A stretch of DNA of 64,000 nucleotides, from positions 1 to 64,000 of the forward strand of contig JAQGDQ010000107.1 of the NCBI GenBank assembly GCA_030141605.1, in the 5' to 3' direction. Within the stretch, counting starts at the first letter, position 1; every line of letters starts with the position of its first letter. Under the pieces are notes generated by a model. The model was not told the DNA's origin. It worked only from the letters and a program-made list of their open reading frames with translations, and did no database searches. This DNA is from Tubiluchus corallicola (Eukaryota; Animalia; Priapulida). Below, piece after piece: positions 9,738-58,257 of the stretch. Made by a program: the position numbers and the translations under genes.

Positions 9738-12700
9738 CTACAAATGGATCTTTCCTTCTATAATGACTACAGACTTGCCTCCAATCTCGACTCTTTTGTC
9801 TTCTCGTACATTCACGTAGACATCTCCTCCTCTTTTTGAGCACTGACGAGCTACAAAAACGCACAAAGCACATGACAAAATAACAACTTTGCAACTTTAC
9901 TTTGGTATTGTTCATAAGAAACAAAGAGATGATTTCAACAAGCGAAATAAAAATCAATGATGCACCCACCTATTCATTCATTCATTCATTCAATCAATCA
10001 TTACATTCATTCACGGAAATTTATTAGGCCTATATATTTACTTACTTGTTTATGTTTTATATTTATTTGCAAATGAGGCAATATGGTGATATGAAACTGC
10101 ACATGAAACTGAATTTAGATCAATAAATGAACCTCCAAAGCAAAATTATAATGTCATGCAAGTGAAACAGCTTCAGCACCTAAATTCAGCCCGAAAATCA
10201 ACTTGTGCAAGTCACAATTAATAACATATTTGTTTTGGTATACATTTATCAAAAGTAAAATACATGCAAAAACCAAAAGCCCTAAAATCACGTAGAATTG
10301 TGTACAAGAATAATAATCCCTTTACAGATCATTTTTATATATCTACCAAGAATGTTTAGAACATATATATATAGGTCCATCGTCTGGAAAATAAGTAAGA
10401 GAGTGTGCATATGCATTAAAACCTACAAAACTATCAAATCTTTAAACTTTTTGCTGAAAATTGTCTTAAAATCTCTAAATCTCTTGTTTTTTAATTACTA
10501 ACAAAAATTATTTTTCATTGTATTAATTATTTATACTAAAACTACATTGCTGTATAAAAATTTTTATACGAATAAAAGATTATTATTAATAATAATACAA
10601 ATGTGCAAAAACAGCAAATTTCAAATGATGCAGAACTCACAGTCGAAGACATATATGTACATAGCAGATGTGCTATGTAGCCAAGGAAATAAGGTCAAAC
10701 TCAGTTCACACATATTCCTGGAGCTGTGCTGGGCCCTGCTAGCTGTCTAAACGTACTAGACTAAGCGATAATACACTTCGCCAGAGTTTAAATGGAGTGC
10801 TAGATATTAATGATAAATATGTATGTCAAATAGGCATAAGCCAGTTCAAAAAATAGACATAATAGTACATCATGGAGGCGGTAAAAGGGTTAAGCAAGAT
10901 ACTGTTCCGGTAACATATGCTGCACAAGTCTATGTGATATGGTATTGCAGGGCAGTAATTATACTTTGTGACTGGCCACTAAAAATATATATTGTTCAAA
11001 ATAACAATTATATTTTCTAGCATTCTGTAATTTTTTGTGAAAAATTGTGTCAATTAAGATACAGTTATTTACAATGGCTGGAAATTTTCATTTTTTAACC
11101 TTTCGAGGACTTTACACACATTGAATTACAGTGTGCTGCACAATATTAAGTAAATCGAACCTATATCGCTCTTTGTCAGCATGGTAATAATCTTGCACAG
11201 AATTTAAATTGAGATCTACTGACATACTGAAAAACACACAAAATCAGATCATAAACGAATAAGCATCATAAGTTAAATTACAATAAACGTCATAAAGCAC
11301 CAAATTATCCTACCTTGAAAAGTTGATTTTCCCAGCACTTTTTGCCAGTAACAACCAAATACAGTGTGAGCCGACCCTAACATAGTCAGAAATTAGTTGA
11401 AGATTACTGGCATCAAACATTGCAAACTTTAAACATGCAAACATAATGAATTAAGATAGGCTTTTCATGTTTTTGAAAAAAACATTTCATGTTTTTGAAA
11501 ATCAGGCCTACAATGTATACTTTATTCACTGGAACTATTACCACATTAGTCCTTCTGCACTAGAACAGAAAAACCATAAAACTGGCAACTCCTTCAGTGA
11601 CATAGTGATTTTCAGTCAGACTTAAGACAGAAAATGTAAGACTAAAACAGAACAAAACTAAAACTAATCTTCATCTTAAAACTAGAGGCCAGAGCCATGT
11701 CGTTTCAGCTGAACTCCAGGCAATTCACTTCTACAGTCGACCTAGCCGATAAGAAACGCAGCTTTAGTCGCGCCAGCTGCTCAGAGATGGAAGTGGAGCC
11801 AGCCGACATTTTTGCCAGCTGCGAAGATTTTAGCTCTTGCGAACAAGCCACTGCCATAGCAGTGTCTAGTTTTTGCTGGATTACTGCTGTGTTTACCTGT
11901 CTTGAGGGTAGATTTCTTTTATTTTAGAGTTCTGCCTACGCAATGTCTACAACTGACATAACGGGCATGTGATGATGACGAAATCACTGGGTGAAATATG
12001 GCAAATGCAGTATGGATTCGTGGTCATACTGTGTGCGTGTGCTGGCAGAGATACTAACTTTGAAAAATTTTTTAATGAGAAAGCAGTCAATTCAAAATTA
12101 AACACACAAATATGCAACGTTAGACACACGTGTGGGATCATTTTAGTGTTTTGGTATTGATTTGGGCACCCTTGCAGTTTAGGTGGTTCTCTTCACACCC
12201 TACAACTTTCCTGTATCAGTCCCACTGCCGATACTCTATCTGTTTTCCACTCCAAACCTTGCCTGTGTCTTTCGCCCCGGTTACAAAAGAACACCAGTAG
12301 ATACGCCACTTACTGGCAAACATAGACACTGCAAAATGGAGCACATCGAGAACATTCCCCAGAAGCTCTTTTTAACTTTTTACTCAGCTAGCTAATTTAC
12401 TGTGTGAGTCAGCTGGTGTGGTAGCAACTGACGGTTGAATAATAAACATAATTTCTTTTGTTTAGCTTTACTTTAAAGCAAAGATAATTATAATTAATTC
12501 ATATATTTAAATAGTATGTCCATTCATTCTTACATAAACAATGCACATTGTTTACCACAAACTGGATCTTCAAGCAGTCCATCCCAGGGAAAAAAACAGC
12601 GGGAATAAAAGTCGTAGCCGGAGTCGGCCGGAGCTTTAACCGTCAAGTGGACACCGTGCAGTTTCATCTGGGACGTGTTAGCTGCAGGAAGAGCAAAACT

Positions 12701-15700
12701 ATCCGGTGCTCTTGCCTCCAACATCTCCCTGAAAATAAATGTATCTTTATTGCTTCATCATGAATGACAGAATTAGCTTGTTGCTCACAGTGTGTCATTA
12801 GCTGCAAAATTAAGCAACATGGGACCTGCTCACTAAATGAATTGATAGTCATTTAAAAAACTGGTTGCCGGTTGCCCCCACTCACTATTAACCTGAGTGA
12901 CAAAGAACGTACAATGTATATGCATTCGAACATGGTGATGATACTTTTATTCATTAGTATTGAAGATACTAATCTTTGCAACTGTCGTATATGTTAAGTA
13001 TATTAAGCATTATACAGACAATGGCATGTTTGTGGCATTGTAAAAGGGCAATGGTTCAGTGTTCGACAAAGCTAAGCAAGTTACTGATAGCCAAGGCATA
13101 GTACTTTCATGTTTTTTTTCGTTTGAATAGATGGCGCTTCCTGCAGGAGTAACTATTTCTCAAAAATAGACCTCTTTTGATGATTTTTGGGTTATAACTC
13201 AGGAGGGTCACAGGGTCACAACCTGAGGTGGCCCTCTACCCTAACTACAAGCATACTAAATTTGGTGGACTAGCTATGTATATTTTTAAGTTATTCCAAA
13301 AAGGTGCATATCTCGGAAACTAAACATCTCAGAATGAAAATAACAGCAGATTCTGAATGTTAAATTTTCGATTGGACTCGCGATTTTGGCACAGTGCATC
13401 AGATTCATCATTTCAGTGCAAATCCAGTGATATATGGCACGCTCTGTAGGATTTATATCTTCCGTTCACAAAGCATTTAAAGCGTCAAGTCTTCATTGTT
13501 AATCATTATTAACCTAACGAAGTGGACTGGCAAAAAAGTGGACCGGCAAAAAAGAAGACTGGCAAAAAAGAAAACTGGCAAAAAAGTAGAATGGCGAAAA
13601 AGTAGACTGGCGAAAAAGAAGACTGGCGAAAAAGAAAATCGGCGAAAAAGAAAACCGGCAAAAAGAAGACTGGCGAAAAAGTGGACCGGGGAAAAAGTGG
13701 ACCGGGGAAAAAGTGGACCGGCAAAAAAGTGGACCGGCGAAAAAGAAAACTGGCGAAAAAGTAGACTGGCGAAAAAGTAGACTGGCAAAAAATAGACTGG
13801 CGAAAAAGAAGACTGGCGAAAAAGAAGACTGGCGAAAAAGAAAACTGGCAAAAAAGAAGACTGGCAAAAAAGTGGACCGGCGAAAAAGAAAACTGGCGAA
13901 AAAGTAGACTGGCGAAAAAGTAGACTGGCAAAAAATAGACTGGCGAAAAAGAAGACTGGCGAAAAAGAAGACTGGCGAAAAAGAAAACTGGCAAAAAAGA
14001 AGACTGGCGAAAAAGTGGAATGGCGAAAAATAAAACTGGCAAAAAATAGACTAGCAAAAAAGAAGACTGGCGAAAAAGTGGAGAGGTGAAAAAGTGGAAT
14101 GGCGAAAAAGAAAACTGGCAAAAAATAGACTAGCGAAAAAGTAGACTGGCAAAAAAGTAGACTAGCAAAAAAGTAGACTGGTGAAAAAGTAGACTGGCAA
14201 AAAGATAACTGGCAAAGTGGGGGATTACCTTTCTGGACACTGTACAATACAACCACAAGCAGCACAGCAAAGATTACAAAAGAAGTAGACTAAAAATAAC
14301 ACATTTTAGCACAATGCTAAGAGCACCAGACATGCAGCAAACATGTACTTGCTACTCACATAACTTTTTCCTTTTACCTGAAGGTAAAACACACACACAC
14401 ATGAAGCCTTATACTTACAACAATAATAACATCAATGACTAATGAATGAAGAATGAGACAATGAAAAATTTTCATCCAATCAGAATTTGAACCCAACAAT
14501 GGACTGAAACATAGTGTATTTTAAATTCTTTTTCATGTAAGTAGAGCTCCTGCCAAAAGTTAAAAAGTAGACTGTCTTCAGCTTTTGTTAATTGATTTCT
14601 ACACATAACTGTACATATCCCATAATTCAATGGGGAGTGTGATGTATTAGCAACTTAATAGACCAAATTTGAAGTTAAATAAGTAAAACAGGACTTTATA
14701 GCAAACAAATAAACAAACATACACAAACACACTTCATAGAAATAGAGATTAATTGCAGATTTGTACAATTTGCAGCAATTTTATAGTATGTATAATAACA
14801 TGAAAGCTAATGAAAAGTGCAAAACGAATGACACACGACAAACCAAATAAAAAATTATCAACATGCACACCTGGACACAGAATCTTGAAGACACACAATC
14901 ATTTGTTGTATAACAGGAGCATACTCCACATCAACAATAGGTAAATCTCCAACAAGTACCTGTATTATAAAAAACATTCACATAAGATTCTACAGTGTAT
15001 TAAAGTTCGGACCAAAATACTTTTTACAAAGAAGAATTTAGATGACTTGACTGTTGCAAGAATGTTGATATTTTGTCGCACTGCTTTTGAGAGTAATGAA
15101 GCATTCATACTAACAAATTTTCTCGCCAAGTAACTCGCAAGCACGTTCAGACTAAAGAACAAAATTCTCCAACATGAAGTAAGCACCAGCTGATACTCCT
15201 CCTCTATTCACTGGGAGCCGTGTCAAGAGTAACTCGCTGAGACTGTTCACACTAAACAGGAAATCATTTCGTAGCAACTGTCTGAAAGTGTGCAATGACT
15301 TGTCGATAGTAACTCGCAAAGCAGTTCACACTTGCAAGTTTGGTGTTAGAGAAAAACTCCCAACAGAAAACTCGCTAGTCTGAATGCACCCTTAGTTTTA
15401 TCATAGCGGCATTGTCTCGTATCTTTAATCTGTGGATTTCTAAATTTAATGCACAGAATGTCAGGTTAGTAATTGTGATAGTTGTTTGCTAAACTTCAAC
15501 TAGTCCTATTGTAGGAGTGCTATGCAATCTAGAATCACCGAAAAGAGTGATATGATATATTTTACTATATTATGTAACAGTGCGTGTGTGTGGGTGTGTG
15601 TGTGCGCGTGCGTGCATGCACGTGTGTGTAACAGCCAGTAAAAAGAAACATTAAAGTAACAGCAAGTGCTTCACTGCCACCATTACTGTAACCCCCCACC

Positions 15701-18700
15701 CCCCCACCCCCATCCCACCTTTGAATAGTTTCCATGTTCCTCTCATGCTGTCTCCCCTCTTCAGGCAAATTCGAAAACTGAATAGGATTAATTAAAACAC
15801 CAAAAAATTGTCATAAAAGGCAAGAAAGCCCTTTACTTACATAAAGCTAGAAAATGTGTCTTTTCTATTTACATGAGTATTGCAGGCAAGAAAGCGTAAT
15901 ACTAAGTAATACAAGTAAGATAATACTAAGTAATATGCCTTCAAAAAAGTCTGTGCAAAGATGCAATTTAGCTATTGGCCAAAAAAAAACAGCCCATATG
16001 ATACATTTGAAAAACATGGCCAGCACACACAGTTAAAACAAGTAACGCCGGAAATTTCCTAAAATACATAAATATACCAAGGCGTCAGAATGTCTTCCAA
16101 ACTGTCAACCACCTACCTGCTAAAAGCTTCAATGATAAAATTACTTACAACAAAAACCCAGGCAAACTTGTTTTACAGGTCATTCAAAACAGTAGGTACC
16201 TTTAAAAGATCTTTAACATTTTCCTTGTTAACACTAATAGTTGGATTAGCAGGAAAATCTAGCAGAATAAAATTGTCCTCTTTTTTTCTGGCAACAAGTG
16301 GTCCACTTAGCGTATCAAATGTAATCTCTGTAAATTCGTTACCTGTAATAATTTACATAGCTGTAGATATATTCACTAGCTGCCTTTTAATTTCAGACCC
16401 CCCTATCATAATGATTATCAATTTCACAAATATTTAGAGCCTAATCGTAGCATTAGTGGATTAGCAATACAATCAAATATTGCAATGCCTAATTGTAATT
16501 TCATTATTGGAATAGAATATGGTTTAGAATATGGTTAACAGGCACTATTTTCCTTTTCCAATTTTTTAAAGTGCAGATGAAAAGAAGGGAAAGCTGACAG
16601 TCTCCTAAGAAAATGCCAAATATGATGAGAACTGAAAACAGCGGAATGCTTTAAGTCCTAAAATGCAAAAAAGGCACACAATCTAAAAAAACAATAGAAG
16701 AAAAAAAGCAAAACTGCATGGAAGCTTATTTGAAGTAAACGCATTAGCACACAAATAAATTCACAGTGAATTCGTTTGGTATTAGGTTGGCAAATAAAAA
16801 CTCCCTGATTTTCAAGACAACGTGAAAAATACTTAAGGGATCGACATAGAAGCCAGAGCCATACCGCTTCAGCTCAGCTCCAGTCGGTTTATTTCTACAG
16901 GCGACCTAGCAGATAAGAAACCCAGCTTTAGTCGTGCCAGCCGCTCGGTGACGGAAGTCGAGGTAGCTGACATTTTTGCCAGCTGTGAAGATTTTTGCTC
17001 TTGCGAACAAGTCACTGGCATAGCAGTGTCCAGTTTTTTTGCTAGATTACTGCTGTGTTTACCTGTTTTGAGGGCAGATTTCTTTTATTTTAGAGTTCTG
17101 CCTGCCCAATGTCTACAATTGACATAACGGGCTTATGATGATGATGAAATCACTGGTCGCAATGCGGTCATATTGTACGTGTGCTGGCAGAGATACTAAA
17201 CTTCAGAAATATTTGAATGAGAAAGCAGTCAATTCAAAATTAAATAAAATGCACAAATAGGCAACATTAGCCACACGTATTGGATCATTTTGGTATTTTA
17301 GTATTGATTTGTTGGTAATCCAGATAAGCCTTGCCAAGGGTTGGATTTAAATTATATTTGCAATAAATCCATTGCTAGAGTTGCCAGATTATAAGCCAGG
17401 AGATTTTTTTTAACATTGTGAGTACATAAAATATGAGAGATATAGAGAGATATATGGCATATAAAGGGGTGTGCTGTCGAATCACTTAAGCCAGTTCACA
17501 AATAAAACTATTCAAACTAACGCTAAATTGTTGCTGCAGGACATAAGAATCAAAATCTGTCATTCTTAATGGTGAACTCCAGCTGGCTGATTTACTGTGA
17601 GTGTCAGCTGATGTAGTAGCACTGACTCAGGTTCAGCTTCTAGATTTACATTTCTGTCCTGCTTAGCAAACTTACCAACACAAGAGAAAAGCACCGTGGC
17701 AGCAGCAAGAGTGGCATGACCACACAGTTGGATTTCACAGGCAGGGGTAAACCATCGCAGGCCAAACCGGGAAGAATTCTTGAACGAATCGTTTTCTGTT
17801 GGCAGTGCAATGAAACAGGTTTCCGACAAGTTCATTTCGAAAGCAATTTTTTGCATTTTTGCATCGTCGATTACCTAAAATAGAATAACCGAATGACTAT
17901 ATACATCACAATGTCTACAGCCATTTAATAATATAACCCAAGAAATGCAGATTACACCACAATTCAACTAATAAAAACAACACAGCCTTCGGACTGTTTG
18001 GAATAGATTTTGAACATATAACATATCTCCTGTTTTGTACAGTTCAAATAATACTCAGAATATCTATTCGAATTGCAGAAAGAAACTACAAAGCCTCCGT
18101 AGAAACGGAAACAACAACAACAACAACAACAAAATGCATTTTCTGCATTGATACTCATTGTAATTGTCACTTAAAATTATACTAAATCTTCATGAAAAAC
18201 ACCTACTATTATAATAGATCCAAATACAAACATAACTTAAAGGCACAGTCACCATTATCCTGACATTATTATGACTGATGTTATAAGTTTAATTGATTAC
18301 AAATTGATTTCAGCTGTGACTAAATGGACACTTTTGTTTTCAACTAACTTGTTAAATTTGTTTCAATATTTCTAAAAATAAACCAGTGATTTTTATTATG
18401 CAAGCCTGCGATTTAAATATTATAATATAATGATTTATTTATTGTAACACAGTTAATTCATTGAGTTAATCACATAAATAAATAACAAAAACATTATCAG
18501 TTAGTAGTTAAAAACTCATATCTTTACATAAATAAGAGTGCGATTAAGACACATACATTGACTGAGTTTGTGCTACAGGACCACAAGTTATTTGCAGTGA
18601 AGAACAGTGCAATAAAAATAGCTGAAAACAAATTAAGACGAAAAGTTTGTTAATGACAGATCATCATTAATTTACCTGATTGTGTGACACTAGACATACA

Positions 18701-18786
18701 GCAGCAGCATTTCCAGCAAATGCCTGGCTTGTGAAAGCATCCACCACATATAAAGGCAAAGTGCATCCCTTATTTAAACTTGTCAT
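9738..18786 (-). CDS. PBLD: PBLD/PhzF-family isomerase, tandem copy B (complete, 296 aa)
   Basis: Exons 18676-18786, 17676-17874, 16200-16342, 14871-14959, 12556-12728 (YDFYSRCFFPWDGLLEDPVCG), 11314-11376 (SAHTVFGCYWQKVLGK) and 9738-9850 (ARQCSKRGG...IEGKIHL*). Total 891 nt, open frame, GT-AG junctions, colinear with human PBLD as recalled. Confidence 0.93.
13521..14217. repeat. 16-bp minisatellite (consensus about CTGGCGAAAAAGWAGA, about 43 copies) in PBLD-B intron 4
   Basis: Tandem units read directly; explains the stop-free overlapping ORFs 13477-14265 etc. Confidence 0.95.
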
Positions 18787-19804
18787 CTTGGTCTGTTGAG
18801 TAGAAACTAATGGCAAATATGCAGCTACAAATTTTGAATATAGTATGATGTCTGTATCAAATTGCCTAATGTACATGTTAGATCATAAATCTGTACCAAA
18901 AACCTAAATACGTCAGCCTAGTTGACAGCCTCTTGGTTTTTTGTCGTTTCAAGAGCTTTATGCAATACCATAGGAAGAGGAGGTAATCTTACTGTTAGTG
19001 TGTGCCCAATCCAAAGCAATTTTCTTACTTGTATTTGTCTACTACCAGGAATCTTCTTGACTGCATTATACAGATCATCATTGGATATTCTATCAGGCGA
19101 TTTAATTGCGAGTAATTTCCTATAGAGACGTCTTCGAAAAGCATCAACTGTCCTTCTGTTGCTTAACTTTTATTGTCCATAGCTCAGCAGTGTACAAAAA
19201 CACAGATTCAACTAAAGTTGAAAGAATCCGGACTCTGGTTTCAAGAGAAAGTCTATTGTTATCAAAAATCATTGAGATATGTGAATAAGCAGACAATTTA
19301 AGAATTTTCCTTCTTTGTATGTGGGCATCGGTGTCTTACAAGTTACCAAGTTATTTACATCTTTTCCACGAATCATTACCGCATCTTCAATTTCAATTTT
19401 GTTCTATTGCACAAATACAATAGCGTATCATGGCAAAAAATTACAATTGCAAAAAAGTCAAAGTACAAGAAACACGAAAAACAACAAATACAGATGCAAT
19501 TATGCAACATTGCAAAACCACGAGTTTGTACAACTTACTTAAATCTAATAAGAAATTATGTGCTCTTACGAAATAAAACTTTATGCTACAACTACAAAGT
19601 AGTAGTAAAAACACAAAACCTAAATAATTAATATAATCACAAACGAGATTAAATTACACAATCACAGCACAAGGTTTATCCAGCACTCACAGATTACCAC
19701 CAAGATATAACTGCCTTTTTTATCACATTCATTTAAGCAGTTTCCAAAGTGAATAAGGTCTTCTGGGTTTGCAATTAGAAAAAAACCACATTACTGAGTA
19801 TATG

Positions 19805-20350
19805 TTACCTTTTTGCAAAGATATATTTATGCTCATATTTTTGTCTAATATCTTTATACAAAAGACAAGTAAAAAGGTAATATAATTTGTTTTCTACTAA
19901 TTTTGAGCTATTGTTGTGACAGTATTGACAAAGCCTTTCATGCCCTTTTTTATTTTGATATCTAAATCGTTCTATTTCCAGGTCATATTCGCTGTTATGT
20001 AATTTCGTAATCATTTGTCGCTGTTTCTCATTAGAAATAATTTTGAAATAATCTTCTAATTCATTATTGATTTTTACATATCTATAAAATCTTAGTTTGT
20101 TTTTGCCATCACTGTGTCTAGGATCATTATGTAGCTTTGTAAAAAATAGTTTTCTGTACATTGATTTAAGTTTATTACAAAATTCTTTTAATATGCAATT
20201 CAGATGCATTTTATCAATTTCATCTACACCACATGTTTGAAATCCTGGAAAATTTGCCCATTTTTGTACAAAGCTGTTTCACTTCTTCATGAGACTGGTA
20301 ACTATACACATTTTTAAATAATGTATTCCTTGACTTTATCTGTGTCATTA
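19805..20350 (-). mobile_element. 3' fragment of CR1/L2/Crack-like LINE ORF2 (duplicate of 5418-5960)
   Basis: ORF 19805-20209 carries LEIERFRY...ERLCQYC...LFTCLLYKDIRQKY. Confidence 0.7.
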
Positions 20351-23300
20351 AAAGATATTTAGGAAGAATTGTTGATGTTTAAATTAGCAGTGGGTATAAC
20401 GTATTCTTTGGTCTTTGTATTGTTCACTTTAAGATTATATTTTTCTATACGACGACTGTTGTACATTTTACATCTTGCAGTTCCTCAACTTCCTCTATGT
20501 CATGTCGCGGCAGTTGCGGTTCTCCAGTAAGCACATGTTGTTTCGTTGTTTCCTCGGTGTTAACTCTATCTGGTTAGATAGGCACAAAGGAATGTTACCG
20601 CGCAAGACACAAGTAACGTAATCAGCATTGATGCTAATCAACCATTTATGACTATTATTATTGTAGCTAAATTTCCAGCACGACACCTCTTCTTTTTCTT
20701 GTTTCCATTGCTATTTGAACAAATTCCACCTACTGCTTTGCTATTTGTGCATCTTCTGACTCAATCAGACTTTGGAAATTTACTTCTGTAGTTGGTAGCA
20801 CATTTCTTATAACAATCTAAATAGATCCTGTCTTTACCATATAGCGGACACCATATATCTCCTTTAAACTTACTTCTATAATTACATTTTAGTGGTAGCA
20901 TATTAAGCTTTATCTCTAAAACCCTTTTTGTCTGTTCTAGTGTTAACTCAGTTATATACTGCTTGGGTTTATCGTGCTCAGCTCATAAGATAAAAACCTT
21001 AACTTAGTTCTTGAGTATATCTGGTGATGTGCAGTAATTTTAATAATTTTTTTACGTTTTCTTTTACATGTTTCTTCCAGGTTAACTTTTTAAGAGTCTT
21101 AATATGCCCAAAGTGTATACCTACAGTATATACTTATGTACACTGTTCTATTAGCATACCCCTATAACTAGTTGACACCTTCTGTGATAAATTACTAGTT
21201 TTTGTAACATATCCTTCTGAATTTCTTCCATCCTACCCATTTCTACTTTTGTTACTTCACTCCATGTTTCTGTATTATAAATCACTAGTATCATAACTGA
21301 CTGTAAGAGGTTCAGCCTTATCTGTATTGCAAACCTACCAATTTTGTTTATATCACTCAAATTTAAAATATCCCTCACGATGCATCCCACTTTTTCACAC
21401 ATCCCACAACGGGATATCTTCAACAGGAAAACCGATCGTTTGGCAACGCGTTGACAGCGTATTTACGACGACTCTCATATCAGACACCTAGGGCTAGGCT
21501 TGGTTAAGCTCATTTTGCTAGTAATTTAGTATTAACAATGTTAATTTTTTTAACGATAAATTGCTGCCATGATCATTTATTAATTTTAGCAAGACTTAAA
21601 TAATTGCTTGCATAGTAGGTGAGCATTTCTCTTATTTGTCAATAAGAAATTTTTTTAAAGCAGCCTAACACGAAAAAACTTTACCATAAATATGTATTAC
21701 GCACATAAACTGACACCTAAAATGAGATTAAATAAAGTAGAATGTTAACAAACTACCACTTCTTCTGTAAAAAAACAAAACAAATTGCATAACTTTATAA
21801 CAAAAATCACAACAAATTACGCAAAATAACATCAGCTAACAACAAAAAGAGGCTGTGATTAAGTAAAGTGCATGAAGGAAACAGTGAAAGTGCATTTGAT
21901 AAGTCACATCAACTGAGACAGCAACAAGATTTATCAACTTTTTGACTTTTTCCAATTTTTATTTATTATACAATGAGTAGCATCACCTGCACTTAGTATG
22001 ATATCTTATGAGTTCACTTCTTCATTTCTACACATTTTGGTACTCTGTCAACTGGTAATAGTAAATCATTTTATCGTACAGTTATTGTAAGCTATTGTAT
22101 AGAAAACTCTCACACGTAGCTGTTCTTACTGTTGAGACAGACCTCATGCAACAATTTAAGTGTTCTTAGAGATTGTGTACATGCGAGTTTGATGTGACAA
22201 AAGAAACAAGCAAGATTCTAACATATTATTGGCTGCATATTGTTTCCAAATTAAAGTTTTTATTAAATAAAATATGCAGTAATATAACTTTTGATCACTG
22301 ACTTCCAGAAATCTTAAGTGTGGCAATGAGCTATTCTGATAAATTTATATTGCTTCATGATATCTAACATATACAACATTAGAATTGTACTATAAAATGC
22401 CCCCTTATTCTTGCCAGGAATTTAAACATATAAGGAACTGCATTTTCTGCTTTGAGTTCATTTATTGTAACACAGAAACATAGTTAAAGTTTAAATAAAC
22501 AAGAATAATCTCATTAAACAAACAAAAATAATTTCATTTTAATTATTCAATCCACGATTTATACAGCTATAAATATAACTGTAATCAAAAAGTATAGCTT
22601 AGCGCATCTGTAACTTCGTAATCTGCTTTAAGCAGAAACCTGTTAACTTATTTCCTATCCTGTTTCATCCTGTTTACAAAAAATATAATTTCATCTTAAT
22701 GTGGACTTGGTCGATTTATAAAGCCACAAAAATTACTGTAATCAAATAACACAGCAGTAACTTGATAATCCACTTTAAGCAGAAACATATTAACTTATTT
22801 GGCACAATTTACACAATAATGCTGTATTTTCATTCAAATATAGAAATTGCATGGCGCATATAACCGCCATTATTATAGTCCTAAGCCGCTTTAACCGAGA
22901 ACAAGTTAATTTATTTGGCACAATTGATAAAATATCACTCAATCCTCTACCCTAATAAAGCAACAATGTGGCACATTTAAATTCTAAAATATAAAACCTA
23001 CAATAATTAACTTCAGAAATGGGCAAAAAAGGTAAGGTCAACTTTGGTCCATAAGTAAAACTTCCCAAATGCATAACAATAGTGGTGTAGTCTAGCTGGT
23101 ATATAGAGAAAAGATAGTATACATCAACAACAACAAAAACGTCCATCCCACTTAGTGCATAGAACATAAAATAATATTTCTATTAAAACTGCACATAATC
23201 CTTTGACTAAAATTGTAAAATTATTATAGGGAACAACACTATTTCAGAATTCCACTCAGTTCACTACATGCTAAAAGCTTATTTTAATTTTCCCTTAAAA

Positions 23301-23762
23301 GGAGCATTTCTAATTAAAAACACAACAATGATAAAATAATCACTGATCATAAGAGAACATTATACACCATTCTATTTTCCCTTAAAGGAACTCTTTTTTA
23401 TATTAACTACGCACTGCTACAGTTCTACCTTCGTTCTATTTTCTAGCACTTACCTGACATGAAAATGATAAACAGGGTTGCTTTTTATATGATAATTATT
23501 CGAATATACGATAATTTGATGCTTCATACCATACAAAAAAAACAGACTGTACGATAACAGATAATTATACGATAATTTAGACAAAAAACATTACTGCTTA
23601 CCAGGGGAAAGTAAACAAATTTTGACTTCGTTGTAATCCAAACCATGCTGGTCGCAATTAGTGGTCAAAGTTTTCAGAAAAAAGCAGTAATTTCAAAAGA
23701 GACTGGTAGCGACATTCTACTGTGTTTTGATAAACTTAATTTTACACTTGCTAATGGTACTT

Positions 23763-24393
23763 GTTATCTCTCAGGCCAGCTTGGGTACAGTGAAGCCAGG
23801 TGTTTTGATTCTAGAGTGTCATTATTCATTTTGCATTACCTGTAGAGTTTGTTTGACATGCTTGGCCGCTCTTGTATGAGTGGTTAGATAGCCTTAGAAT
23901 AGGAAAAAATTGTGTTTTTAGTGGTATAGTAGTTGTGAAGTCAGTATGCCACCGTTGTAGAATCAGTATGTCTCTGTTAATTTCTGAAGACTGGCTTAAA
24001 GTTTTTTCTACAGATCCTCAAACGTTTGTAAGTTCTTATGTTTCTTCATTTTTATGCAGAACTTTGCAGTAATTTATTTGTCAGCTTGGTAGTTTCTAAT
24101 AGTGTTACGGTGATGCCTAATTATTGTTTTTTTTTTGCAACTGCATATGCATATGCGTGTTTTTGTGTAGGCGTGCATGCTGATTTGTGATATGTCAGGA
24201 AGTTTATTTATTAGTAAATTCTGCTTCAGTATGCTTGTTAATTTGCTAATGCTTGTTCCTTTATTTATTTTTTGCATGTCTGTTATGGATTTACTTTTGT
24301 TTCATGTTCTTTTTTCTTGTTTCTCTTGCAGTTTCACCTTTTTTACAATGAGTGGAAAATAAAATCTGTAAAACAAATAGCCAGTTTTCTACA
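23763..24393. mobile_element. 631-bp insertion with 6-bp target duplication (GTACTT), downstream of PBLD-C only
   Basis: Copy B has an uninterrupted ggtactttttggtgttatgg at 9521; copy C has gtactt...[insert]...gtactttttggtgttatgg. Confidence 0.7.
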
Positions 24394-24609
24394 GTACTTT
24401 TTGGTGTTATGGTTACTTATTAAATGCATAATTATACAATAATAATAACAATTTGCTGCAAATACACAGAAATTTTGAATTTTGCATGAAGATGCGATAA
24501 TATGGTGGAAAATACTATAATTTTTAGCTTCCAAAACAATAATCTTTATCAACCAGAATGGCAACACTGTGATAAAGCAATCAGATAAAGTACGATTCCA
24601 TGATTTAGA

Positions 24610-27600
24610 CTATAAATAGATCTTTCCTTCTATAACGACTACAGACTTGCCTCCAATCTCGACTCTCTTGTCTTCTCGTACATTCACGTAGACATCTCCT
24701 CCTCTTTTTGAGCACTGACGAGCTACAAAAACGCACAAAGCACATGACAAAATAACAACTTTGCAACTTTATTTTGATATTGTTCATAAGAAAAAAAGAT
24801 ATGATTTCAACAAGCCAAATAAAAATCAATCATGCACCCACCTATTCATTCATTCATTCAATCAATCAATCATTACATTCATTCACGAAAATTTGTTAGG
24901 CCTATATATTTACTTACTTGTTTAAGTTTTATATTTATTTGCAAATGAGGCAATATGGTGATATGAAACTGCACATGAAACTGAATTTAGATCAATAAAT
25001 GAACCTCCAAAGCAAAATTATAGTGTCATGCAAGTAAAACAGCTTCAGCCCCTAAATTCAGCCCGAAAATCAACTTGTGCAAGTCACAATTAAAAATATA
25101 TTTGTTTTGGTATACATTTATCAAAAGTAAAATACATGCAAAAACCAAAAGCCTTAAAATCACGTAGAATTGTGTACAAGAATAATAATCCCTTTACAGA
25201 TCATTTTTATATATCTATCAAGAATGTTTAGAACATATATATATATATATATATATATATAGGTCCATCATCTCTAAAATAAGTGGGAGAGTGTGCATAT
25301 GCATTAAAACCTCCAAAACTATCAAATCTTTAAGCTTTTTGCTGAAAATTGTCTTAAAATCTCTAAATCTCTTGTTTTTTAATTACTAACAAAAATTATT
25401 TTTCATTGTATTAATTATTTATACTAAAACTACATTGCTGTATAAAAAATTTTATACGAACAAAAGATTATTATTAATAATAATAAAAATGTGCAAAAAC
25501 AGCAAATTTCAAATGATGCAGAATTCACAGTCGAAGACATATATGTACGTAGCAGATGTGCTATGTAGCCAAGGAAATAAGGTCAAACTCAGTTTACACA
25601 TATTCCTGGAGCTGTGCTGGGCCCTGCTAGCTGTCTAAACGTACTAAACTAAGCGATAATACACTTCGCCAGAGTTTAAATGGAGCGCTAGATACTAATG
25701 ATAAATATGTACATCAAATAGGCATAAGCCAATACAAAAAATAGACATAATAGTACATCATGGAGGCGGTAAAAGGGTTAAGCAAGATACTGTTCCGGTA
25801 ACATATGCTGCACAAGTCTATGTGATATGGTATTGCAGGGCAGTAATTATACTTTGTGACTGGCCACTAAAAATATATATTGTTCAAAATAACAATTATA
25901 TTTTATAGCATTCTGTAATTTTTTGTGAAAAATTATGTAAACTAAGACGCAGTTATTTACAATGGCTGGAAATTTTCATTTTTTAACCTTTCGAGGACTT
26001 TACACACATTAAATTACAGTGTGCTGTACGACATTAAGTAAATCAAACCTATGTCGCTCTTTGTCAGCATGGTAATAATCTTGCACAGAATTTAAATTGA
26101 GATCTACTGACATACTGAAAAACATACAAAATCAGATCATAAACGAATAAGCATCATAAGTTAAATTATAACAAACGTCATAAAACAGCAAATTATCCTA
26201 CCTTGAAAAGTTGATTTTCCCAGCACTTTTTGCCAGTAACAACCAAATATAGTGTGAGCCGACCCTAACATAGTCAGAAATTAGTTGGAGATTACTGGCA
26301 TCAAACATTGCAAACTTTAAACATGCAAATATAATGAATTAAGATAGGCTTTTCATGTTTTTGAAAAAAAAACATTTCATGTTTTTGAAAATCAGGCCTA
26401 CAATGTATACTTTATTCACTGGAACTATTACCACATAAGTCCTTCTGTACTGGATAGAATATTTTGTGGCCAAAATTTCATTATTCTCATAAAAACTGCA
26501 AAGTTAGAAACCACCTCAACAGAAAAACCATAAAACTGGCAACTCCTTCAGTGACATAGTGATTTTCAGTCAGACTTAAGACAGAAAATGCAAGACTAAC
26601 ACAGAACAAAACTAAAACTAATCTTCATCTTAAAACTAGAGGCATGAGCCATGTCGTTTCAGCTGAACTCCAGGCAATTCACTTCTACAGTCGACCTAGC
26701 CGATAAGAAACCCAGCTTTAGTCGCACCAGCCACTCAGAGATGAGTGGAGCCAGCCGACATTTTTGCCGGCTGCGAAGATTTTAGCTCTTGCGAACAAGC
26801 CACTGCCAAAGCAGTGTCTAGTTTTTTGCTAGGTTACTGCTGTGTTTACCTGTCTTGAGGGCAGATTTCTTTTATTTTAGAGTTCTGCCTACCCAATGTC
26901 TACAATTGACATAACAGGCTTGTGATGATGACGAAATCACTGGGTGAAATTTGGCGAATGCACTACGGATTCGTGGTCATACTGTGTGCGTGTGCTGGCA
27001 GAGATACTATCTTTGAAAAATTTTTTAATGAGAAAGCAGTCAATTCAAAATTAAACACAAAAATAGGCAATGTTAGACACACGCATGGGATCATTTTAGT
27101 GTTTTGGTATTGATTTGGGCACTCTTGCAGTTTAGGTGGTTCTCTTCACACCCTACTATCTTCCTACATCAGTCCCACTGCCGACACTCTACCTGTTTTC
27201 CACTCCAAATCTTGCCTCTGTCTTCCACCCCATCGCCAAGCCTCCAAGAATGTAAAGCCGCCAAGAGTGCCAAGAACACCCAGCTGTCCAACCCAACATG
27301 CCATACTGAAAACTTGCCAAAACTAACTGATTGACTAACTGACTAGCTTATATAGCTAACTAACTAATTAACAATCTTCGTATAGCTACCTCTTTTGTAT
27401 GGCATGAAGCCTCAAATTATCGTATGTTCCAATATTAATTATTTTACTGTATAAACCACAACCCTAGTTGTGCTGCATTTCAAAAGAGAAAGAAAAGTTA
27501 CAAAACAACGCCAGTAGAGTACGCCACTTACTGGCAAACACAGACGCAGCAAAATGGTGCACATCAAGAATAATAAACATAATTTCTTTTGTTTAGCTTT

Positions 27601-30600
27601 ACTTTAAAGCAAAGATAATTATAATTAATTCATATATATCAATAGTATATTCATTCATTCTTACATAAACAATGCAAATTGTTTACCACAAACTGGATCT
27701 TCAGACGTTCCAATCCAGGGAAAAAAACTGCGGGAATAAAAGTCATAGCCGGAGTTGGCTGGAGCTTTAACCGTCAAGTGGACACCGTACAGTTTCATCA
27801 GGGATGTGTTAGCTGCAGGAAGAGCAAAAATATCCGGTGCCCTTGCTTCCAAGATCTCCCTGAAAATAAATGTCTCTTTATTGTTTTATCACGAATGACA
27901 GGATTAGCTTGTTGCTCACAGTGTCCTTAGCTGCAAAATTAAGCAACATGGGACCTTAAGCCACTGTTGGGCATATTTTCACTTCATCCACCAATAGCAT
28001 ACAGTGTTTCTGCTCAGAGCTTTTTACTTTCTGAAATGTTTTACCTAGCACCTTGTCAATATCTGTCGATGAAATAACTGACTGCAGCTTTCTTTTGCTG
28101 GGTAACACTAAAAAGTCACGCAGTTGTTCGTAATTGCAATGGGGAAATGACTCTATTGCAAAGCAATAATCAGACACTGTGAAAGTCTTATCACATAATA
28201 GTCGAAGCTGTCGTGTTAGAAATTTGAGCTTCTTGGCTTTAGCATTAACACTAGGAGATTGTTCTCGATTTTGAGCTAGTTCAAGTTCAAGAGACTTTGT
28301 CACTTTGTTGACAATATCATCAACATGATGAATGTGGTTGACAACAGAATTCACAACCGCGAAAAATTGTGAGTAAGAGGACAGTCCATTGTTCGGACTG
28401 AGGATTTTAATTAATGGCACACTGATCCCGTTTTTGAAAGCATACAGAGTAAGAGGGGAACACAAGGTAGGCTTATTGTGAACAATAATTGACATATAAC
28501 ATTGACTGTGGTCCTCTTCCATGAACATGCACACAAATTTGTCTTGTGCGCGAGATATAATGAGGTTCTGATACGTCTTATGCAGGTCTTTCTCAGGAGT
28601 GAATTCATTGAGATAAGTTATTTTATCCTTTTTAAAGAAATAATTCAGCTGCTGGTCCTCAGTTTTTGGAGGGCGAGGTGGTGGCTTTGGAGTGGGCAAG
28701 CATGATGTTGGAACGTTGAAAATACTGGGTGGATCCACTGGCTGGTGTGACCACCTGGAATTTTGACTATTTGAGTATCCGATGGCCAATGCTTTTCGCA
28801 AATGAAAAATTTCGATGGATCAACAACAAAGCCTTCGCGTGGGGGAAGAACACTTAGCCATTTCTGTTTTTCTACATGATCTCTTGGCAGTCTGAACACA
28901 CGACACTTGTTCTCCGTGTCATAGTTACCTTGTTAGGCATGCTGCTGAGCACAGATGTATAAAATCCACGAGAAATTTTGAAAATAATCCCAAAAGAAAC
29001 AAACACAAGCACGAAAACAACGCTTCACTTGACTTTGAACAATGACACATTAACAATGACAAAGCACTACTTCCGGTAAAACACACTTACGCCTAAAGTA
29101 GTGCGCTATTTAAGAAGTAAAAATGAACACTAATTTCCTTTGATACATAAAATAAACAATTGGAACTTTTCTCCCGTAATGTAAAGAACCAATTAAATGA
29201 AAAATAATACTCGCTATCTACCGATCCGTCCATTCTTTAATTTCCAAGATCACTACTCTCTAAAGCGCACTATTTCTAGATTACGTTCATTACAAGTATT
29301 GATCGCCTCCGCTGGCGGAATCAGAGATCTGACTGTGCACGTCCTGTTGTATAGTAGTCCTTGCCTGAAGGTAAAACACACACACACACATGAAGCCTTA
29401 TACTTACAACAATAATAACATCAATGACTAATGAATGAAAAATGAGACAATGAGAGAATGAACCCAACAATGGACTGAAACATAGTGTATTTTAAATTCT
29501 TTTTCATGTAAGTAGAACTCCTGCCAAAAGTTAAAAAGTAGACTGACTTCAGCTTTTGTTAATTGATTTCTGCACATAACTGTACATATCCCATAATTCA
29601 ATGGGGAGTGTGATGTATTAGCAACTTAATAGACCAAATTTTAAGTTAAATAAATAAAACAGGACTTTATAGCAAACAAATAAACAAACATACACAAACA
29701 CACTTCATAGAAATAGAGATTAATTGCAGATTTGTGCAATTTGCAGCAATTTTATAGTATGTATAATAACATGAAAGCAAATGAAAAGTGCAAAACGAAT
29801 GACACACGACAAACCAAATAAAAAATTATCAACATGCACACCTGGACACAGAATCTTGAAGACACACAATCATTTGTTGTATAACAGGAGCATACTCCAC
29901 ATCAACAATAGGTAAATCTCCAACAAGTACCTGTATTATAAAAAACATTCACGTAAGATTCTACAGTGTATTAAAGTTTGGACCAAAATACTTTTTACAA
30001 AGAAGAATTTAGATGACTTGACTGTTGCAAGAATGTTGATATTTTGTCGCACTGCTTTTGAGAGTAATGAAGCATTCATACTAGCAAATTTTCTCGCCAA
30101 GTAACTCGCAAGCACGTTCAGACTAAAGAACAAAATTCTCCAGCATGAAGTAAACACCAGCTGATACTCCTCCTCTATTCACTGGGAGCAGTGTCAAGAG
30201 TAACTCGCTGAGACTGTTCACACTAAACAGGAAATCATTTCGTAGCAACTGTCTGAAAGTGTGCAATGACTTGTCGATAGTAACTCGCAAAGCAGTTCAC
30301 ACTTGCAAGTTTGGTGTTAGAGAAAAACTCCCAACAGAAAACTCGCTAGTCTGAATGCACCCTTAGTTTTATCATAGCGGCATTGTCTCGTATCTTTAAT
30401 CTGTGGATTTCTAAATTTAATGCACAGAATGTCAGGTTAGTAATTGTGATAGTTGTTTGCTAAACTTCAACTAGTCCTATTGTAGGAGTGCTATGCAATC
30501 TAGAATCACCGAAAAGAGTGATATGATATACTTTACTATATTATGTAACAGTGTGTGTGTGTGGGTGTGTGCGTGCGTGTGCATGCATGCACGGGTGTGT

Positions 30601-33600
30601 AACAGCCAGTAAAAAGAAACAATAAAGTAACAGCAAGCGCTTCACTGCCACCATTACTGTAACCACCCCACCCCGTCCCACCTTTGAATAATTTCCATGC
30701 TCCTCTCATGCTGTCCCCCTCTTCAGGTAAATTCAAAAACTGAATAGGGTTAATTAAAACACCAAAAAATTGTCATAAAAGGCAAGAAAGCCCTTTACTT
30801 ACATAAAGCTAGAAAATGTGTCTTTTCTATTTACATGAGTATTGCAGGCAAGAAAGCCCTTTACTTACATAAAGCTAGAAAATGTGTCTTTTCTATTTAC
30901 AAGAGTATTGCAGGCAAGAAAGCCCTTTACTTACATAAAGCTAGAAAATGTGTCTTTTCTATTTACATGAGTATTGCAGGCAAGAAAGCCCTTTACTTAC
31001 ATAAAGCTAGAAAATGTGTCTTTTCTATTTACATGAGTATTGCAGGCAAGAAAGCCCTTTACTTACATAAAGCTAGAAAATGTGTCTTTTCTATTTACAT
31101 GAGTATTGCAGGCAAGAAAGCGTAATACTAAGTAATACAAGTAAGATAATACTAAGTAATATGCCTTCAAAAAAGTCTGTGCAAAGCTGCAATTTAGCTA
31201 TTGACCAAAAAAACAGCCCATATGATACATTTGAAAAACATGGCCAGCACACACAGTTAAAACGAGTAAGCCTGGAAATTTCCTAAAATACATAAATATA
31301 CCAAGGTGTCAGAATGTCTTCCAAACTGTCAACCACCTACCTGCTAAAAGCTTCAATGATAAAATTACTTACAACAAAAACCCAAGCAAACTTGTTTTAC
31401 AGCTCATTCAAAAGAGTAGGTACCTTTAAAAGCTCTTTCACATTTTCCTTGTTAACACTAATAGTTGGATTAGCAGGAAAATCAAGCAGAATCATATTGT
31501 CCTCTTTTTTTCTGGCAACAAGTGGTCCACTCAGCGTATCAAATGTAATCTCTGTAAATTCGTTACCTGTAATAATTTACATAGCTGTAGATATATTCAC
31601 TAGCTGCCTTTTAATTTCAGACCTGCCTATCATAATGATTATCAATTTCACAAATATTTAGAGCCTAATCGTAGCATTAGTGGATTAGCAATACAATCAA
31701 ATATTGCAATGCCTAATTGTAATTTCATTATTTGAATAGAATATGGTTTAGAATATGGTTAACAGGCACTATTTTTCTTTTCCAATTTTTTAAAGTGCAG
31801 ATAAAAAGAAGGGAAAGCTGACAGTCTCCTAAGAAAATGCCAAATATGATGAGAACTGAAAACAGCGGAATGCTTTAAGTCCTAAAATGCAAAAAAAGGC
31901 ACACAATCTCCAAGCAATAGAAGAAAAAAAAGCAAAACTGCATGGAAGCTTATTTGAAGTAAACACATTAGCACACAAATAAATTCACAGTGAATTCGTT
32001 TGGTATTAGGTTGGCAAATAAAAACTCCCTGATTTTCAAGACAACGTGAAAAATACTTATGGGATCGCCATAGAAGCCAGAGCCGTACCGCTTCAGCTCA
32101 GCTCCAGCCGGTTTATTTCTACAGTCGACCTAGCCGATAAGAAACCCAGCTTTAGTCGTGCCAGCCGCTCGGTGACGGAAGTCGAGGTAGCTGACATTTT
32201 TGCCGGCTGTGATGATTTTTGCTCTTGCGAAAAAGTCACTGGCATAGCAGTGTCCAGTTTTTGTTAGATTACTGCTGTGTTTACCTGTTTTGAGGACAGA
32301 TTTCTATTATTTTAGAATTTTGCCTGCCCAATGTCTAGAAATAATGTAACAGGCTTATGATGATGATGAAATCACTGGTTGCAATGCGGTCATATTGTAC
32401 GTGTGCTGGCAGAGATACTAAACTTCAGAAATTTTTGAATGAGAAAGCAGTCAATTCAAAATTAAATAAAATGCACAAATAGGCAACATTAGCCACAGGT
32501 ATGGGATCATTTTGGTGTTTAGTATTGATTTGTTGGTAATCCAGATAAGCCTTGCCAAGGGTTGGATTTAAATTATATTTTCAATAAATCCATTGCTAGA
32601 GTTGCCAGATTATAAGCCAGGAGATTTTTTTAACATCGCGAGTACATAAATTATGAGAGATATATGGCATATAAAGGGGCGTGCTGTCGAATCACTTAAA
32701 CCAGTTCACAAATAGAACTATTCAAACTAACACTAAATTGTTGCTGCAGGACATAAGAATCACAATCTGTCATTCGTAATGGTGAACTCCAGTAAGTAAG
32801 CCACTGAAGGAGTAATCATAAGTGTCAATTCCTGAACCAAGTTCACTTAGGAAAATTTAGGTTTTGGTCAACTTGGCCTAGTGTTTATGCAGCACAGTGG
32901 CGGTTGTGTATAAGTATCAGAACTGCAGCGCCCCCTATTTTCACTCAATATTATCGATAATATTCAATACAATAAGTCTTTTTTCTTTAGTTCTTTCTTT
33001 ATACTTGTACGGAACCAGAGCACATGATGGTGCTGCACTGCTAGCATCTGCAGTAAGGTAGAGAAAGTACTGTCACTCACACAGTTGTCAGTTGTCACGT
33101 TCTTAAAAACCATGTACCGGCATATTCTTGAACTGCAGCAATTTAGGCTATTCGTAAGCAAAGATTTTTTTGTTTAGGATTTTATCAAGTTTACGTATGT
33201 TTTTGTATGCTTGTTTGTTTAAAATTACAATTACAACATTAAAATTACTTCAGCCGAGCTAGCTGATTTACTATGTGAGTGTCAGATGATTTAGTAGCAA
33301 CTGACTCAGTTTCAGCCGAGTTAGCTGATTTACTGTGAGTGTCAGCTGATTTAGTAGCAACTGACTCAGTTTCAGCCGAGCTAGCTGATTTACTGTGTGA
33401 CTCAGCTGATTTAGTAGCAACTGACTCAGCTTCAGCTTCTAGATTTACATTTCTGTCCTGCTTAGCAAATTTACCAACACAAGAGAAAAGCACCGTGGCA
33501 GCAGCAAGAGTGGAATGACCGCACAGTTGGAATTCGCAGGCAGGGGTAAACCATCGTAGACCAAAACGGGAAGAATTCTTGAACGAATCGTTTTCTGTTG

Positions 33601-34579
33601 GCAGTGCAATGAAACCGGTTATCGGCAAGTTCATTTCGAAAGCAATTTTTTGCATTTTTGCATCGTCGATTACCTAAAATAGAATAACCGAAGGACTATA
33701 TACATCACAATGTCTACAGCCATTTAATAATATAACCCAAGAAATGCAGATTACACCACAATTCAACTAATAAAAACAACACAGCTTTTGGGCAGTTTGG
33801 GATACATTTTGAACATATAACATATCTGCTGTTTTGTACAGTTCAAATAATACACAGAATATCTATTCTAATTGCAAAAAGAAACTACAAAGCCTCAGTA
33901 GAGACGGAAACAACAACAACAACAAAATGCATTTTCTGCATTGATACTCATTGTAATTCTCACTTAAAATTATACTAACGCTTTATGAAAAACACCTACT
34001 GTTATAATAGATCCAAATACAAACATAACTGAAAGGCACAGTCACCATTATCCTGACATTATTATGACTGATGTTATAAGTTTAATTGATTACAAATTGA
34101 TTTCAGCTGTGACCAAATGGACACTTTTATTTTCATCTAACTTGTTAAATTTGTTTCAATATTTCTAAAAGGAAACCAGTGATTTTTATTATGCAAGCCT
34201 GTGATTTAAATATTATAATATAATGATTTATTTATTGTAACACAGTAGATTAATTGAGTTAATCGCATAAATAAATAACAAGAAACATTATCAGTTAGTA
34301 GTTAAAAACTCGTATCTTTACATAAATAAGAGTGCGATTAAGCCACATACATTGACTTTGATTTTGTGCTATAGGATCACAAGTTATTTGCAGTGAAGAA
34401 CAGTGCAATAAAAATAGCTGACAACAGATTAAGACGAAAAGTTTGTTAATGACAGATCATTAATTTACCTGATTGTGTGACACTAGACATACAACAGTAG
34501 CATTTCCAGCAAATGCCTGGCTTGTGAAAGCATCCACCACATATAAAGGCAACGTGCATCCCTTATTTAAACTTGTCAT
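24610..34579 (-). CDS. PBLD: PBLD/PhzF-family isomerase, tandem copy C (complete, 296 aa, divergent active-site loops)
   Basis: Exons 34469-34579, 33475-33673 (EMNLPITGF...LCGHST), 31424-31566, 29842-29930, 27687-27859 (YSRSFFPWIGTSEDPVCG), 26202-26264 and 24610-24722 (...VIEGKIYL*). Same exon sizes as copy B, no stops or frameshifts. Confidence 0.92.
27957..29354 (-). mobile_element. Truncated, frameshifted THAP9/P-element-like DNA transposon in PBLD-C intron 4
   Basis: Degenerate THAP domain (GNY...VFRLP...KW...PR...ICEKHW; N-terminal CxxxxC missing), followed by the P-element transposase-like LPSKRKL...CMLLVDE. Cut off at 27957. Confidence 0.8.
30780..31120. repeat. 66-bp minisatellite, 5 copies, in PBLD-C intron 3
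   Basis: Unit aggcaagaaagccctttacttacataaagctagaaaatgtgtcttttctatttacatgagtattgc; single copy in A and B (1431-1508). Confidence 0.95.
32597..33247 (+). mobile_element. Partial hAT-like composite MITE, highly similar to 47711-48190
   Basis: Starts TAGAGTTGCCAGATT and includes the left part of a nested CAGTGGCGG element. Shorter remnants at 2989-3190 and 17376-17580. Confidence 0.7.
33249..33440. repeat. 60-62-bp tandem repeat, 3 copies, in PBLD-C intron 2
   Basis: ttcagccgag at 33249, 33311 and 33371; single diverged copy in A and B (about 3192-3250). Confidence 0.9.
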
Positions 34580-34674
34580 CTTGGTCTGTTGAGTAGAAAC
34601 AAAATGCAAATATGAAGCTAGAAATTTTTAATCTAGTATGTTGTCTGTATCGTATTACTTAATATACAAGTTAG

Positions 34675-35029
34675 TGTTGTGTTTAGTTTCTCTCGAAAGG
34701 CTCGTAGAGAAAACCAGAAAACACGCCGTCAAATAAAACTGCTTTATTTAGCGAGAATTCTACTATACAAAAGATGAAGGAACGTTGAAATGATTACAAT
34801 AAACGTGAAAATCTGGAAAACGTTTAAGTAAGTATAAATGCGTAAGTATAAGTCCGTGTTAGATCTGCGTGCGATCCCCTGTCGGCAGCCTGCTTCGCCT
34901 TATATAGCGCACTGCAGAAACTTCTGGAACAAATGTTCGAGAACAATCCAGACGCTAAAGCGGTCATCCCGACAGAACATTCTACGACGTTCTGTGCAAT
35001 TCTACTTGACGTCAGCGATCTCCACAACA
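34675..35029 (-). mobile_element. Solo LTR (355 bp) just upstream of the PBLD-C start exon
   Basis: TGTTGTG...CACAACA inverted termini and a perfect 5-bp TSD GTTAG (34670-34674, 35030-35034). Empty site in A and B (catgttagatcata, about 4487). Minus-strand TATATAA at about 34900 and AATAAA at 34743-34748. Confidence 0.88.
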
Positions 35030-37650: not shown

Positions 37651-37651
37651 A

Positions 37652-44170: not shown

Positions 44171-44180
44171 GAGAGTGAGT

Positions 44181-44211
<31 letters not shown>

Positions 44212-44431: not shown

Positions 44432-58257
<13,826 letters not shown>

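Follow-up and report, generated by a model that had tools for sequence, protein, structure and literature searches.

A tandem array of PBLD genes

The window analysed here is a 64,000-nucleotide stretch of contig JAQGDQ010000107.1 from the priapulid Tubiluchus corallicola, and it holds a tandem array of genes for PBLD, an animal member of the PhzF family. A six-frame motif scan revealed three sets of PBLD exons, all intron-containing and all on the minus strand, which we refer to as copies A, B and C. Copies A and B were built exon by exon; each gives an open frame of 891 nucleotides with AG/GT boundaries throughout, and the exons have the same lengths in both (111, 199, 143, 89, 173, 63 and 113 bases). 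With tblastn, no PBLD copy beyond these three was found within the 64-kb window.

34579-24610, minus strand: PBLD copy B, intact, 7 coding exons, 296 amino acids, Cys88 and Cys238
34579-34469, 33673-33475, 31566-31424, 29930-29842, 27859-27687, 26264-26202, 24722-24610, minus strand: coding exons of copy B
18786-9738, minus strand: PBLD copy A, intact, 7 coding exons, 296 amino acids, Cys88 and Cys238, Ser54-Glu55 retained
18786-18676, 17874-17676, 16342-16200, 14959-14871, 12728-12556, 11376-11314, 9850-9738, minus strand: coding exons of copy A
4399-482, minus strand: PBLD copy C, exons 1-4 only, truncated by the window start
34586-34906, minus strand: putative untranslated first exon; each copy has an acceptor-like AG lying 6 bases ahead of its ATG, and B has a TATA-like box upstream, at 34906

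The predicted proteins match animal PBLDs over their full length, aligning end to end over 296 amino acids with up to 49% identity; the best matches are proteins of corals, amphioxus and a sponge (48-49%). In both A and B, exons 2 and 5 passed the Pfam cut-off for PhzC-PhzF (PF02567), set at 27 bits, with scores of 76.7, 27.9, 63 and 32 bits, and exon 5 used alone as a query gave 6 candidates and no homologue. The splice model has outside support because a 168-base contig of run X6, which comes from a relative and whose status as RNA is a guess, joins exons 6 and 7 without an intron. An exon-2 contig of the same run, 85% like copy B, runs on into letters that, on manual reading, look like the beginning of exon 3. 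No RNA run was listed as matching 24600-34590. The acceptor-like and TATA-like signals listed above suggest an untranslated first exon upstream of the coding exons.

Copy C lies outside 9738-34579, the stretch first flagged in an earlier note on this DNA, and has zero codon differences from copy A in its visible coding part (exons 1-4). The tandem expansion claimed in that note holds in that three copies are present, with the qualification that two of them, A and C, are identical in coding sequence as far as C can be seen.

The cysteine pair and its distribution

Both complete copies carry LCGH(A/S)T in exon 2 and EDPVCGSAH across exons 5 and 6, as the earlier note had reported and gene building confirmed. 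These motifs contain Cys88 and Cys238, here called sites 1 and 2, so that a protein with both is Cys/Cys; site 2 of copy C would fall beyond the window start.

17676-17874, minus strand: exon 2 of copy A, NLSET and LCGHAT, Cys88 codon at 17724-17722
33475-33673, minus strand: exon 2 of copy B, LCGHST, codons 54-57 (33625-33614) without the conserved Ser-Glu, Cys88 codon at 33523-33521
12556-12728, minus strand: exon 5 of copy A, EDPVC at its end, Cys238 codon at 12559-12557
27687-27859, minus strand: exon 5 of copy B, EDPVC at its end, Cys238 codon at 27690-27688

EDPVC closes exon 5 and GSAH opens exon 6. Because the Cys238 codon, TGT, lies entirely within exon 5, the call of this residue is independent of the splice model.

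Alignment of a 72-sequence PBLD profile with Escherichia coli DapF using hhalign placed LCGH on Cys73 and EDPVCG on Cys217 (E 8.7e-5, probability 60%, 18% identity). The structure examined was a model of P0225, a Cys/Cys fish homologue standing in for A and B, whose own fold is predicted through it. In this model (predicted local distance difference test score, pLDDT, 95.9) Cys79 and Cys229 lie immediately before helices 80-93 and 230-244, and the fold matches were, in order, PhzF-family structures, hydroxyproline epimerases, DapF and proline racemase. Passages in PMC11602996 and PMC12039745 place the catalytic cysteines of DapF-fold racemases at the heads of two central helices, and a C-alpha distance of 7-8 Å between the cysteines is given for closed sites of the proline racemase family in part of PMC4113996. 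The model and the profile alignment together point to a DapF-like fold for the window copies, with the cysteine pair at helix heads equivalent to Cys73 and Cys217 of DapF, and to this extent they bear out the two-cysteine active site proposed in the earlier note.

By sequence, the window copies belong to the PBLD/PhzF family and not to DapF, proline racemase or true PhzF, and they may work like a two-cysteine racemase. The DapF (TIGR00652) and proline racemase profiles gave no match to the window exons, and P0225 scored 21.8 bits against the DapF (TIGR00652)/proline racemase family profile, below the cut-off of 114.65. True PhzF is disfavoured by the absence in copy B of the conserved Glu discussed below and by the low standing of PhzF chains, which rank far below PDB entries 1S7J and 4DUN and share 26% identity with the homologue model.

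We evaluated how common the second cysteine is using homologue sets that are the top matches of searches rather than a census of the family. Among the best 120 matches to exon 2, site 2 was Thr in 100 and Cys in 12, after 5 pattern matches away from the site had been discarded. Cys was found in the hoopoe, in plants and in unnamed proteins, part of them grouping with PhzF-family proteins of bacteria. An invertebrate-weighted profile gave Thr in 117 of its best 120 matches and Cys in 3 (hoopoe, the fish Aplochiton and an unnamed protein grouping with teleosts). The proteins in that set that we labelled as named invertebrates had Thr at site 2 in 28/28 and Cys in 0/28. Pooling the searches gave 376 proteins, of which 359 were aligned and 17 dropped by length. 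Site 2 in these 359 was Thr in 329, Cys in 18 (18/357 with a residue), Asn in 8, Ser in 2 and a gap in 2. That DPVCG is the common state of invertebrate PBLDs, the finding by which the earlier note would have had its idea refuted, is rejected by these counts.

Nor is the Cys/Cys state special to this animal. Cys/Cys proteins made up 5 of 143 cluster representatives, two of them from named invertebrates: Aplysia XP_005092509, and an amphioxus (Branchiostoma) protein that has Cys/Thr neighbours from the same genus on the tree. Besides these, the state was seen in the hoopoe, in a fish, in plants and bacteria, and in PDB 1S7J. On a midpoint-rooted FastTree tree of 354 leaves, the 20 Cys leaves need about 15 changes, a figure given with no shuffled control. 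The Cys/Cys state is rare yet recurrent across the family. The eight homologues with Asn at site 2 (P0292, P0297, P0321, P0330, P0341, P0360, P0366 and P0374) form a further active-site class.

Copy B and the possible function of the array

Copies A and B cannot be treated as equivalent: the two coding sequences show that the pocket of B is remodelled and has lost the conserved Glu. They differ at 21 residues, and the changes from A to B in motif residues are A28T, A29V, S54P, E55I, C57G, I85F, A91S, C225S, D230I, L232T and L233S; residues 54-57 read Ser-Glu-Thr-Cys in A and Pro-Ile-Thr-Gly in B. Glu or Asp at position 55 is kept in 352 of the 359 homologues, with Glu in A and C and Ile in B, and Thr28, Val29, Phe85 and Ser91 of B occur in 0, 0, 0 and 1 homologue. 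The 41 motif (active-site) residues hold 11 of the 21 amino-acid changes versus 1 of the 16 synonymous-only codons (hypergeometric P 1.3e-5, for motif windows that were chosen after the A-B differences were known). The ratio of nonsynonymous to synonymous divergence (dN/dS) between A and B is 0.47, and the branch lengths are 0.073 for B versus 0.007 for A. Of 73 conserved columns B departs from 10, a number reached by only 5% of homologues, and A from 5, which is equalled or exceeded by 30% of 345 homologues.

Parts of PMC5524880 describe E45 of PhzF as an essential proton shuttle, and the position of the conserved SET motif suggests that this residue corresponds to Glu55 of copy A. Its loss was compared with other changes in the family. 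A general link with Cys238 was looked for and not found (1/18 Cys homologues versus 6/339 others), and an association with Gly or Ser at 91 was weak (2/7 versus 13/350, P 0.03, uncorrected for relatedness). The X6 exon-2 contig has Ser-Val at 54-55 and Gly91; allowing 3 mismatches, its 5' loose end is found nowhere in the window. An exon-2 contig of run X4 shows the canonical Ser-Glu and also Val-Pro. Over window positions 33440-33760, four exon-2 pocket types were seen across the window and runs X4 and X6, of which only X6 carries the species label of the DNA run that matches the window best.

These proteins can be compared with several described enzymes. They share family and length with animal PBLD/MAWBP (PF02567, TIGR00654), being at best 49% identical over their full length to coral and amphioxus proteins, and the GN, NLSET, WFTP, LCGH, EDPV and RGG motifs are all present in A; the differences are Cys instead of Thr at site 2 and, in B, the missing Glu55. 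Literature listings present animal PBLD as a tumour suppressor and immune regulator, and searches at the level of titles and abstracts turned up no reaction for it. The best structural and profile match, the Enterococcus faecalis PhzF-family protein of PDB 1S7J, is bacterial and Cys/Cys, with LCGHAT and EDPVCGSAH; unlike B it keeps Ser-Glu, and the title of the entry names no function. We know of no phenazine pathway in animals. The dihydro-hydroxyanthranilate (DHHA) isomerase PhzF of Pseudomonas is of the same family, and B lacks the residue matching its proton shuttle. DapF, proline racemase and hydroxyproline epimerase share the fold (template modelling, TM, scores of about 0.6-0.68 for the homologue model) with cysteines at equivalent positions, and CGH at the first cysteine here recalls the MCGH motif given in part of PMC1964878; DapF is only 18% identical to the PBLD profile, and its family profile does not claim these proteins.

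Cys/Cys PhzF-family proteins are already known in plants and bacteria, and the nearest functional precedent is the plant enzyme DAAR1, whose substrate cannot be carried over. The name DAAR1 (At4g02850) and the Strauch 2015 citation are given in a passage of PMC4978887, and the relevant part of PMC12039745 lists the plant enzyme of Strauch 2015 among DapF-fold cofactor-free epimerases. Several plant PhzF-family matches (Malus, Nepenthes, Trifolium, Solanum) are Cys/Cys like A and B; they are about 38-40% identical to B, form their own clade and, unlike B, keep Glu55. DAAR1 is reportedly, from the work of Strauch et al. in 2015, an isoleucine racemase/epimerase of the PhzF family with a Cys/Cys site, with mutagenesis said to have been reported. 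Literature searches, mostly of open-access papers and of titles and the starts of abstracts, found no paper on two-cysteine animal PBLDs.

Taken with the precedents, the sequences allow us to propose that this PBLD has turned into a DapF-type thiol/thiolate racemase or epimerase by a Cys/Thr to Cys/Cys change, with copy B diverging in substrate, a reading that we hold to be evenly balanced between right and wrong. Within the proline racemase family, passages in PMC4113996 and PMC8142540 describe Cys/Cys enzymes as racemising or epimerising and Cys/Thr enzymes as dehydrating, and provide a precedent for the switch from one to the other. In our scheme, Thr238 would have become Cys, through at least two base changes, before B and A duplicated. 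The second thiol would then form with the first a cofactor-free two-base pair able to invert a small carboxylate, for instance an amino acid, at its alpha carbon, and the PhzF-type Glu55 would become dispensable. Copy B would have exchanged Glu55 and its neighbours for apolar residues, shifting its preference probably to an apolar substrate, and A and C would remain near the ancestral state, either homogenised or recently duplicated.

Several observations weigh against this proposal. According to part of PMC1964878, three Cys-Cys homologues of proline racemase were tested and had neither activity, so that the pair by itself does not suffice for acting on the amino acids tested. The Cys leaves of the tree are mostly single and scattered among Thr relatives, as would be expected of a tolerated swap (the hoopoe branch is 0.086), site 2 also accepts Asn and Ser, and in yeast YHI9 only the second of the two sites is Cys. 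The lack of any tie between Glu loss and Cys238 and the after-the-fact choice of motif windows count on the same side.

The strongest rival draws on the same facts. It holds that the array retains ordinary PBLD chemistry, with Cys238 a tolerated helix-cap swap that mainly binds carboxylate through its backbone NH, with A and C carrying out the usual, probably Glu55/Cys88-based isomerisation or elimination, and with the array a duplication for dosage. The recurrence of Cys as mostly single leaves fits this well, as do the retained Ser54-Glu55 of A and its few departures from conserved columns. Against it, Thr to Cys costs at least two base changes in a column that is 92% Thr, Cys238 coincides with the second catalytic cysteine of DapF, and the pocket-focused changes of B go unexplained. 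We consider it unlikely, if a serious competitor. Less probable again is that B arose by recent duplication and is decaying or turning non-catalytic, the loss of Glu55 inactivating it whatever A does. The near-universal Glu/Asp at this position and the essential role of its counterpart in true PhzF mean that the loss in B could simply kill activity, which would also tell against a racemase role for B; the rarity of so many departures from conserved columns points the same way, and no B-type transcript contig was found. Decay should scatter changes, however, and those of B cluster in the pocket, with no such clustering of synonymous changes. B has no stop, frameshift or broken splice site and retains both cysteines, His90 and Asp235, and versions without Glu also occur in Aplysia and the X6 contig.

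The proposed racemase or epimerase could have a wider counterpart. Aplysia californica XP_005092509, an uncharacterised PBLD 44-46% identical to the window copies, is Cys/Cys with Pro-Val at 54-55, Gly91 and Phe227, resembling B. On the tree its closest neighbour, an Elysia protein, is Cys/Thr and has Glu, which suggests convergence, and its grouping with A and B (support 0.88) may reflect long-branch attraction. One could speculate, and we think it doubtful, that in animals PBLD has more than once been rebuilt into a DapF-type thiol/thiolate racemase, with Thr replaced by Cys, Glu then dropped and the pocket made apolar, convergently in B, the related X6 sequence and Aplysia; if so, animals would be able to reach D-amino acids or D-configured metabolites without a cofactor. 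Passages of PMC11277431, in which PBLD is not mentioned, describe an unidentified Aplysia L/D peptide isomerase sensitive to cysteine alkylation. That Cys/Cys PBLDs are candidates for this enzyme is very improbable; the first strand of the fold begins right at the N-terminus of these proteins, and inspection by eye shows no signal peptide.

The animal racemases known to us depend on pyridoxal 5'-phosphate. If active as proposed, the Cys/Cys PBLDs would represent animal amino-acid racemases or epimerases that need no cofactor; if inactive, the array would be an ordinary tandem duplication with a tolerated substitution. As natural Cys/Cys PBLDs, these proteins should trap or invert the substrate class of the family, and the A/B pair, 21 residues apart, with and without Glu55, would be a ready-made test of the residues responsible for the chemistry.

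History of the array and its surroundings

The three gene copies are separated by related spacers:

18787-24393: B-A spacer, about 97% like the A-C spacer, with collinear patches of 70-87% to the region upstream of B (37088-41049)
4400-9521: A-C spacer, almost identical to the B-A spacer until about 5500, then about 2-3% diverged, and about 6% in the last 278 bases

Synonymous divergence between A and B (16/203 sites) exceeds their intron divergence (154/4405, P 0.003), and their upstream regions share only collinear patches of 70-87%. These sequence comparisons suggest that the duplication is older, and that the gene bodies were homogenised in part while the exons kept their differences. C differs from A in the introns at 1 of 3374 aligned bases and could stem from recent duplication, from gene conversion or from another haplotype.

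The least probable of the rivals is a partial artefact of assembly or haplotypes, with C a false duplicate of A, or with the cluster at codons 54-57 of B an error or a rare allele. It is favoured by the near identity of the C and A introns and by contigs from runs X1 and X2, which come from one sample, possibly the source of the window. The depths of their A-type and B-type arms (233.6 versus 209 in X1, 11.6 versus 9.1 in X2) are nearer 1:1 than the 2:1 that the window predicts, contig depth not being a copy number. No B-type contig matches codons 54-57 of B, and the contig letters at 33616-33625 are all A-type, a point that also weighs against the proposed divergence of B; in the 3' part of B 28 of 30 checked differences have A's letters in the contigs. 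Conversely, both exon-2 types exist, because X1 and X2 each hold A-type and B-type arms at 33484-33596, where the B stretch was matched with 0 differences. The cluster in B shows no indel, only four substitutions, and variants are lost from contigs; the two spacers diverge past 5500; and the upstream likeness of A and B is too low for alleles. Cys238 is present in A and B alike. Since this explanation and the decay of B concern only B or C, both can coexist with the proposed Cys/Cys racemase or epimerase.

Repeats and probable mobile-element remains lie around and within the genes. A 480-base repeat occurs in introns 2 and 5 (11683-12164, 16847-17311, 26637-27117, 32071-32532 and 2460-2924), with about 80-82% likeness between the two introns. 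Intron 4 of A holds a minisatellite of roughly 16-base units at 13520-14220 that has no counterpart in B, and a 66-base unit present about 5 times in intron 3 of B (30780-31121) is single in A. A dispersed repeat (32595-33248 and 47709-48190) is inserted after exon 2 of B, lengthening the open frame there to 142 codons. Intron 4 of B contains, at 27956-28819 on the minus strand, an open frame of 287 codons that is absent from A and has no Pfam or NCBIfam match; its very high contig depth in X1 and X4 makes it a likely multicopy transposon fragment.

The 93 open frames of at least 55 amino acids in the interval 34.7-62.6 kb gave no Pfam family that would mark a neighbouring gene; a 94th is a reverse transcriptase. 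The region upstream of B contains a fragment of a reverse transcriptase (RVT_1) of long interspersed nuclear element (LINE) type at 37681-38820 on the minus strand and, at 38906-39469 on the plus strand, an opposite frame that resembles a LINE C-terminus by eye and has no Pfam match. A decayed retroelement-like frame at 19805-20278 and 5580-5990 (minus strand), with no significant Pfam match, was duplicated with the spacer. Long GA-dinucleotide microsatellites lie at 62845-63393 and 44154-44277.

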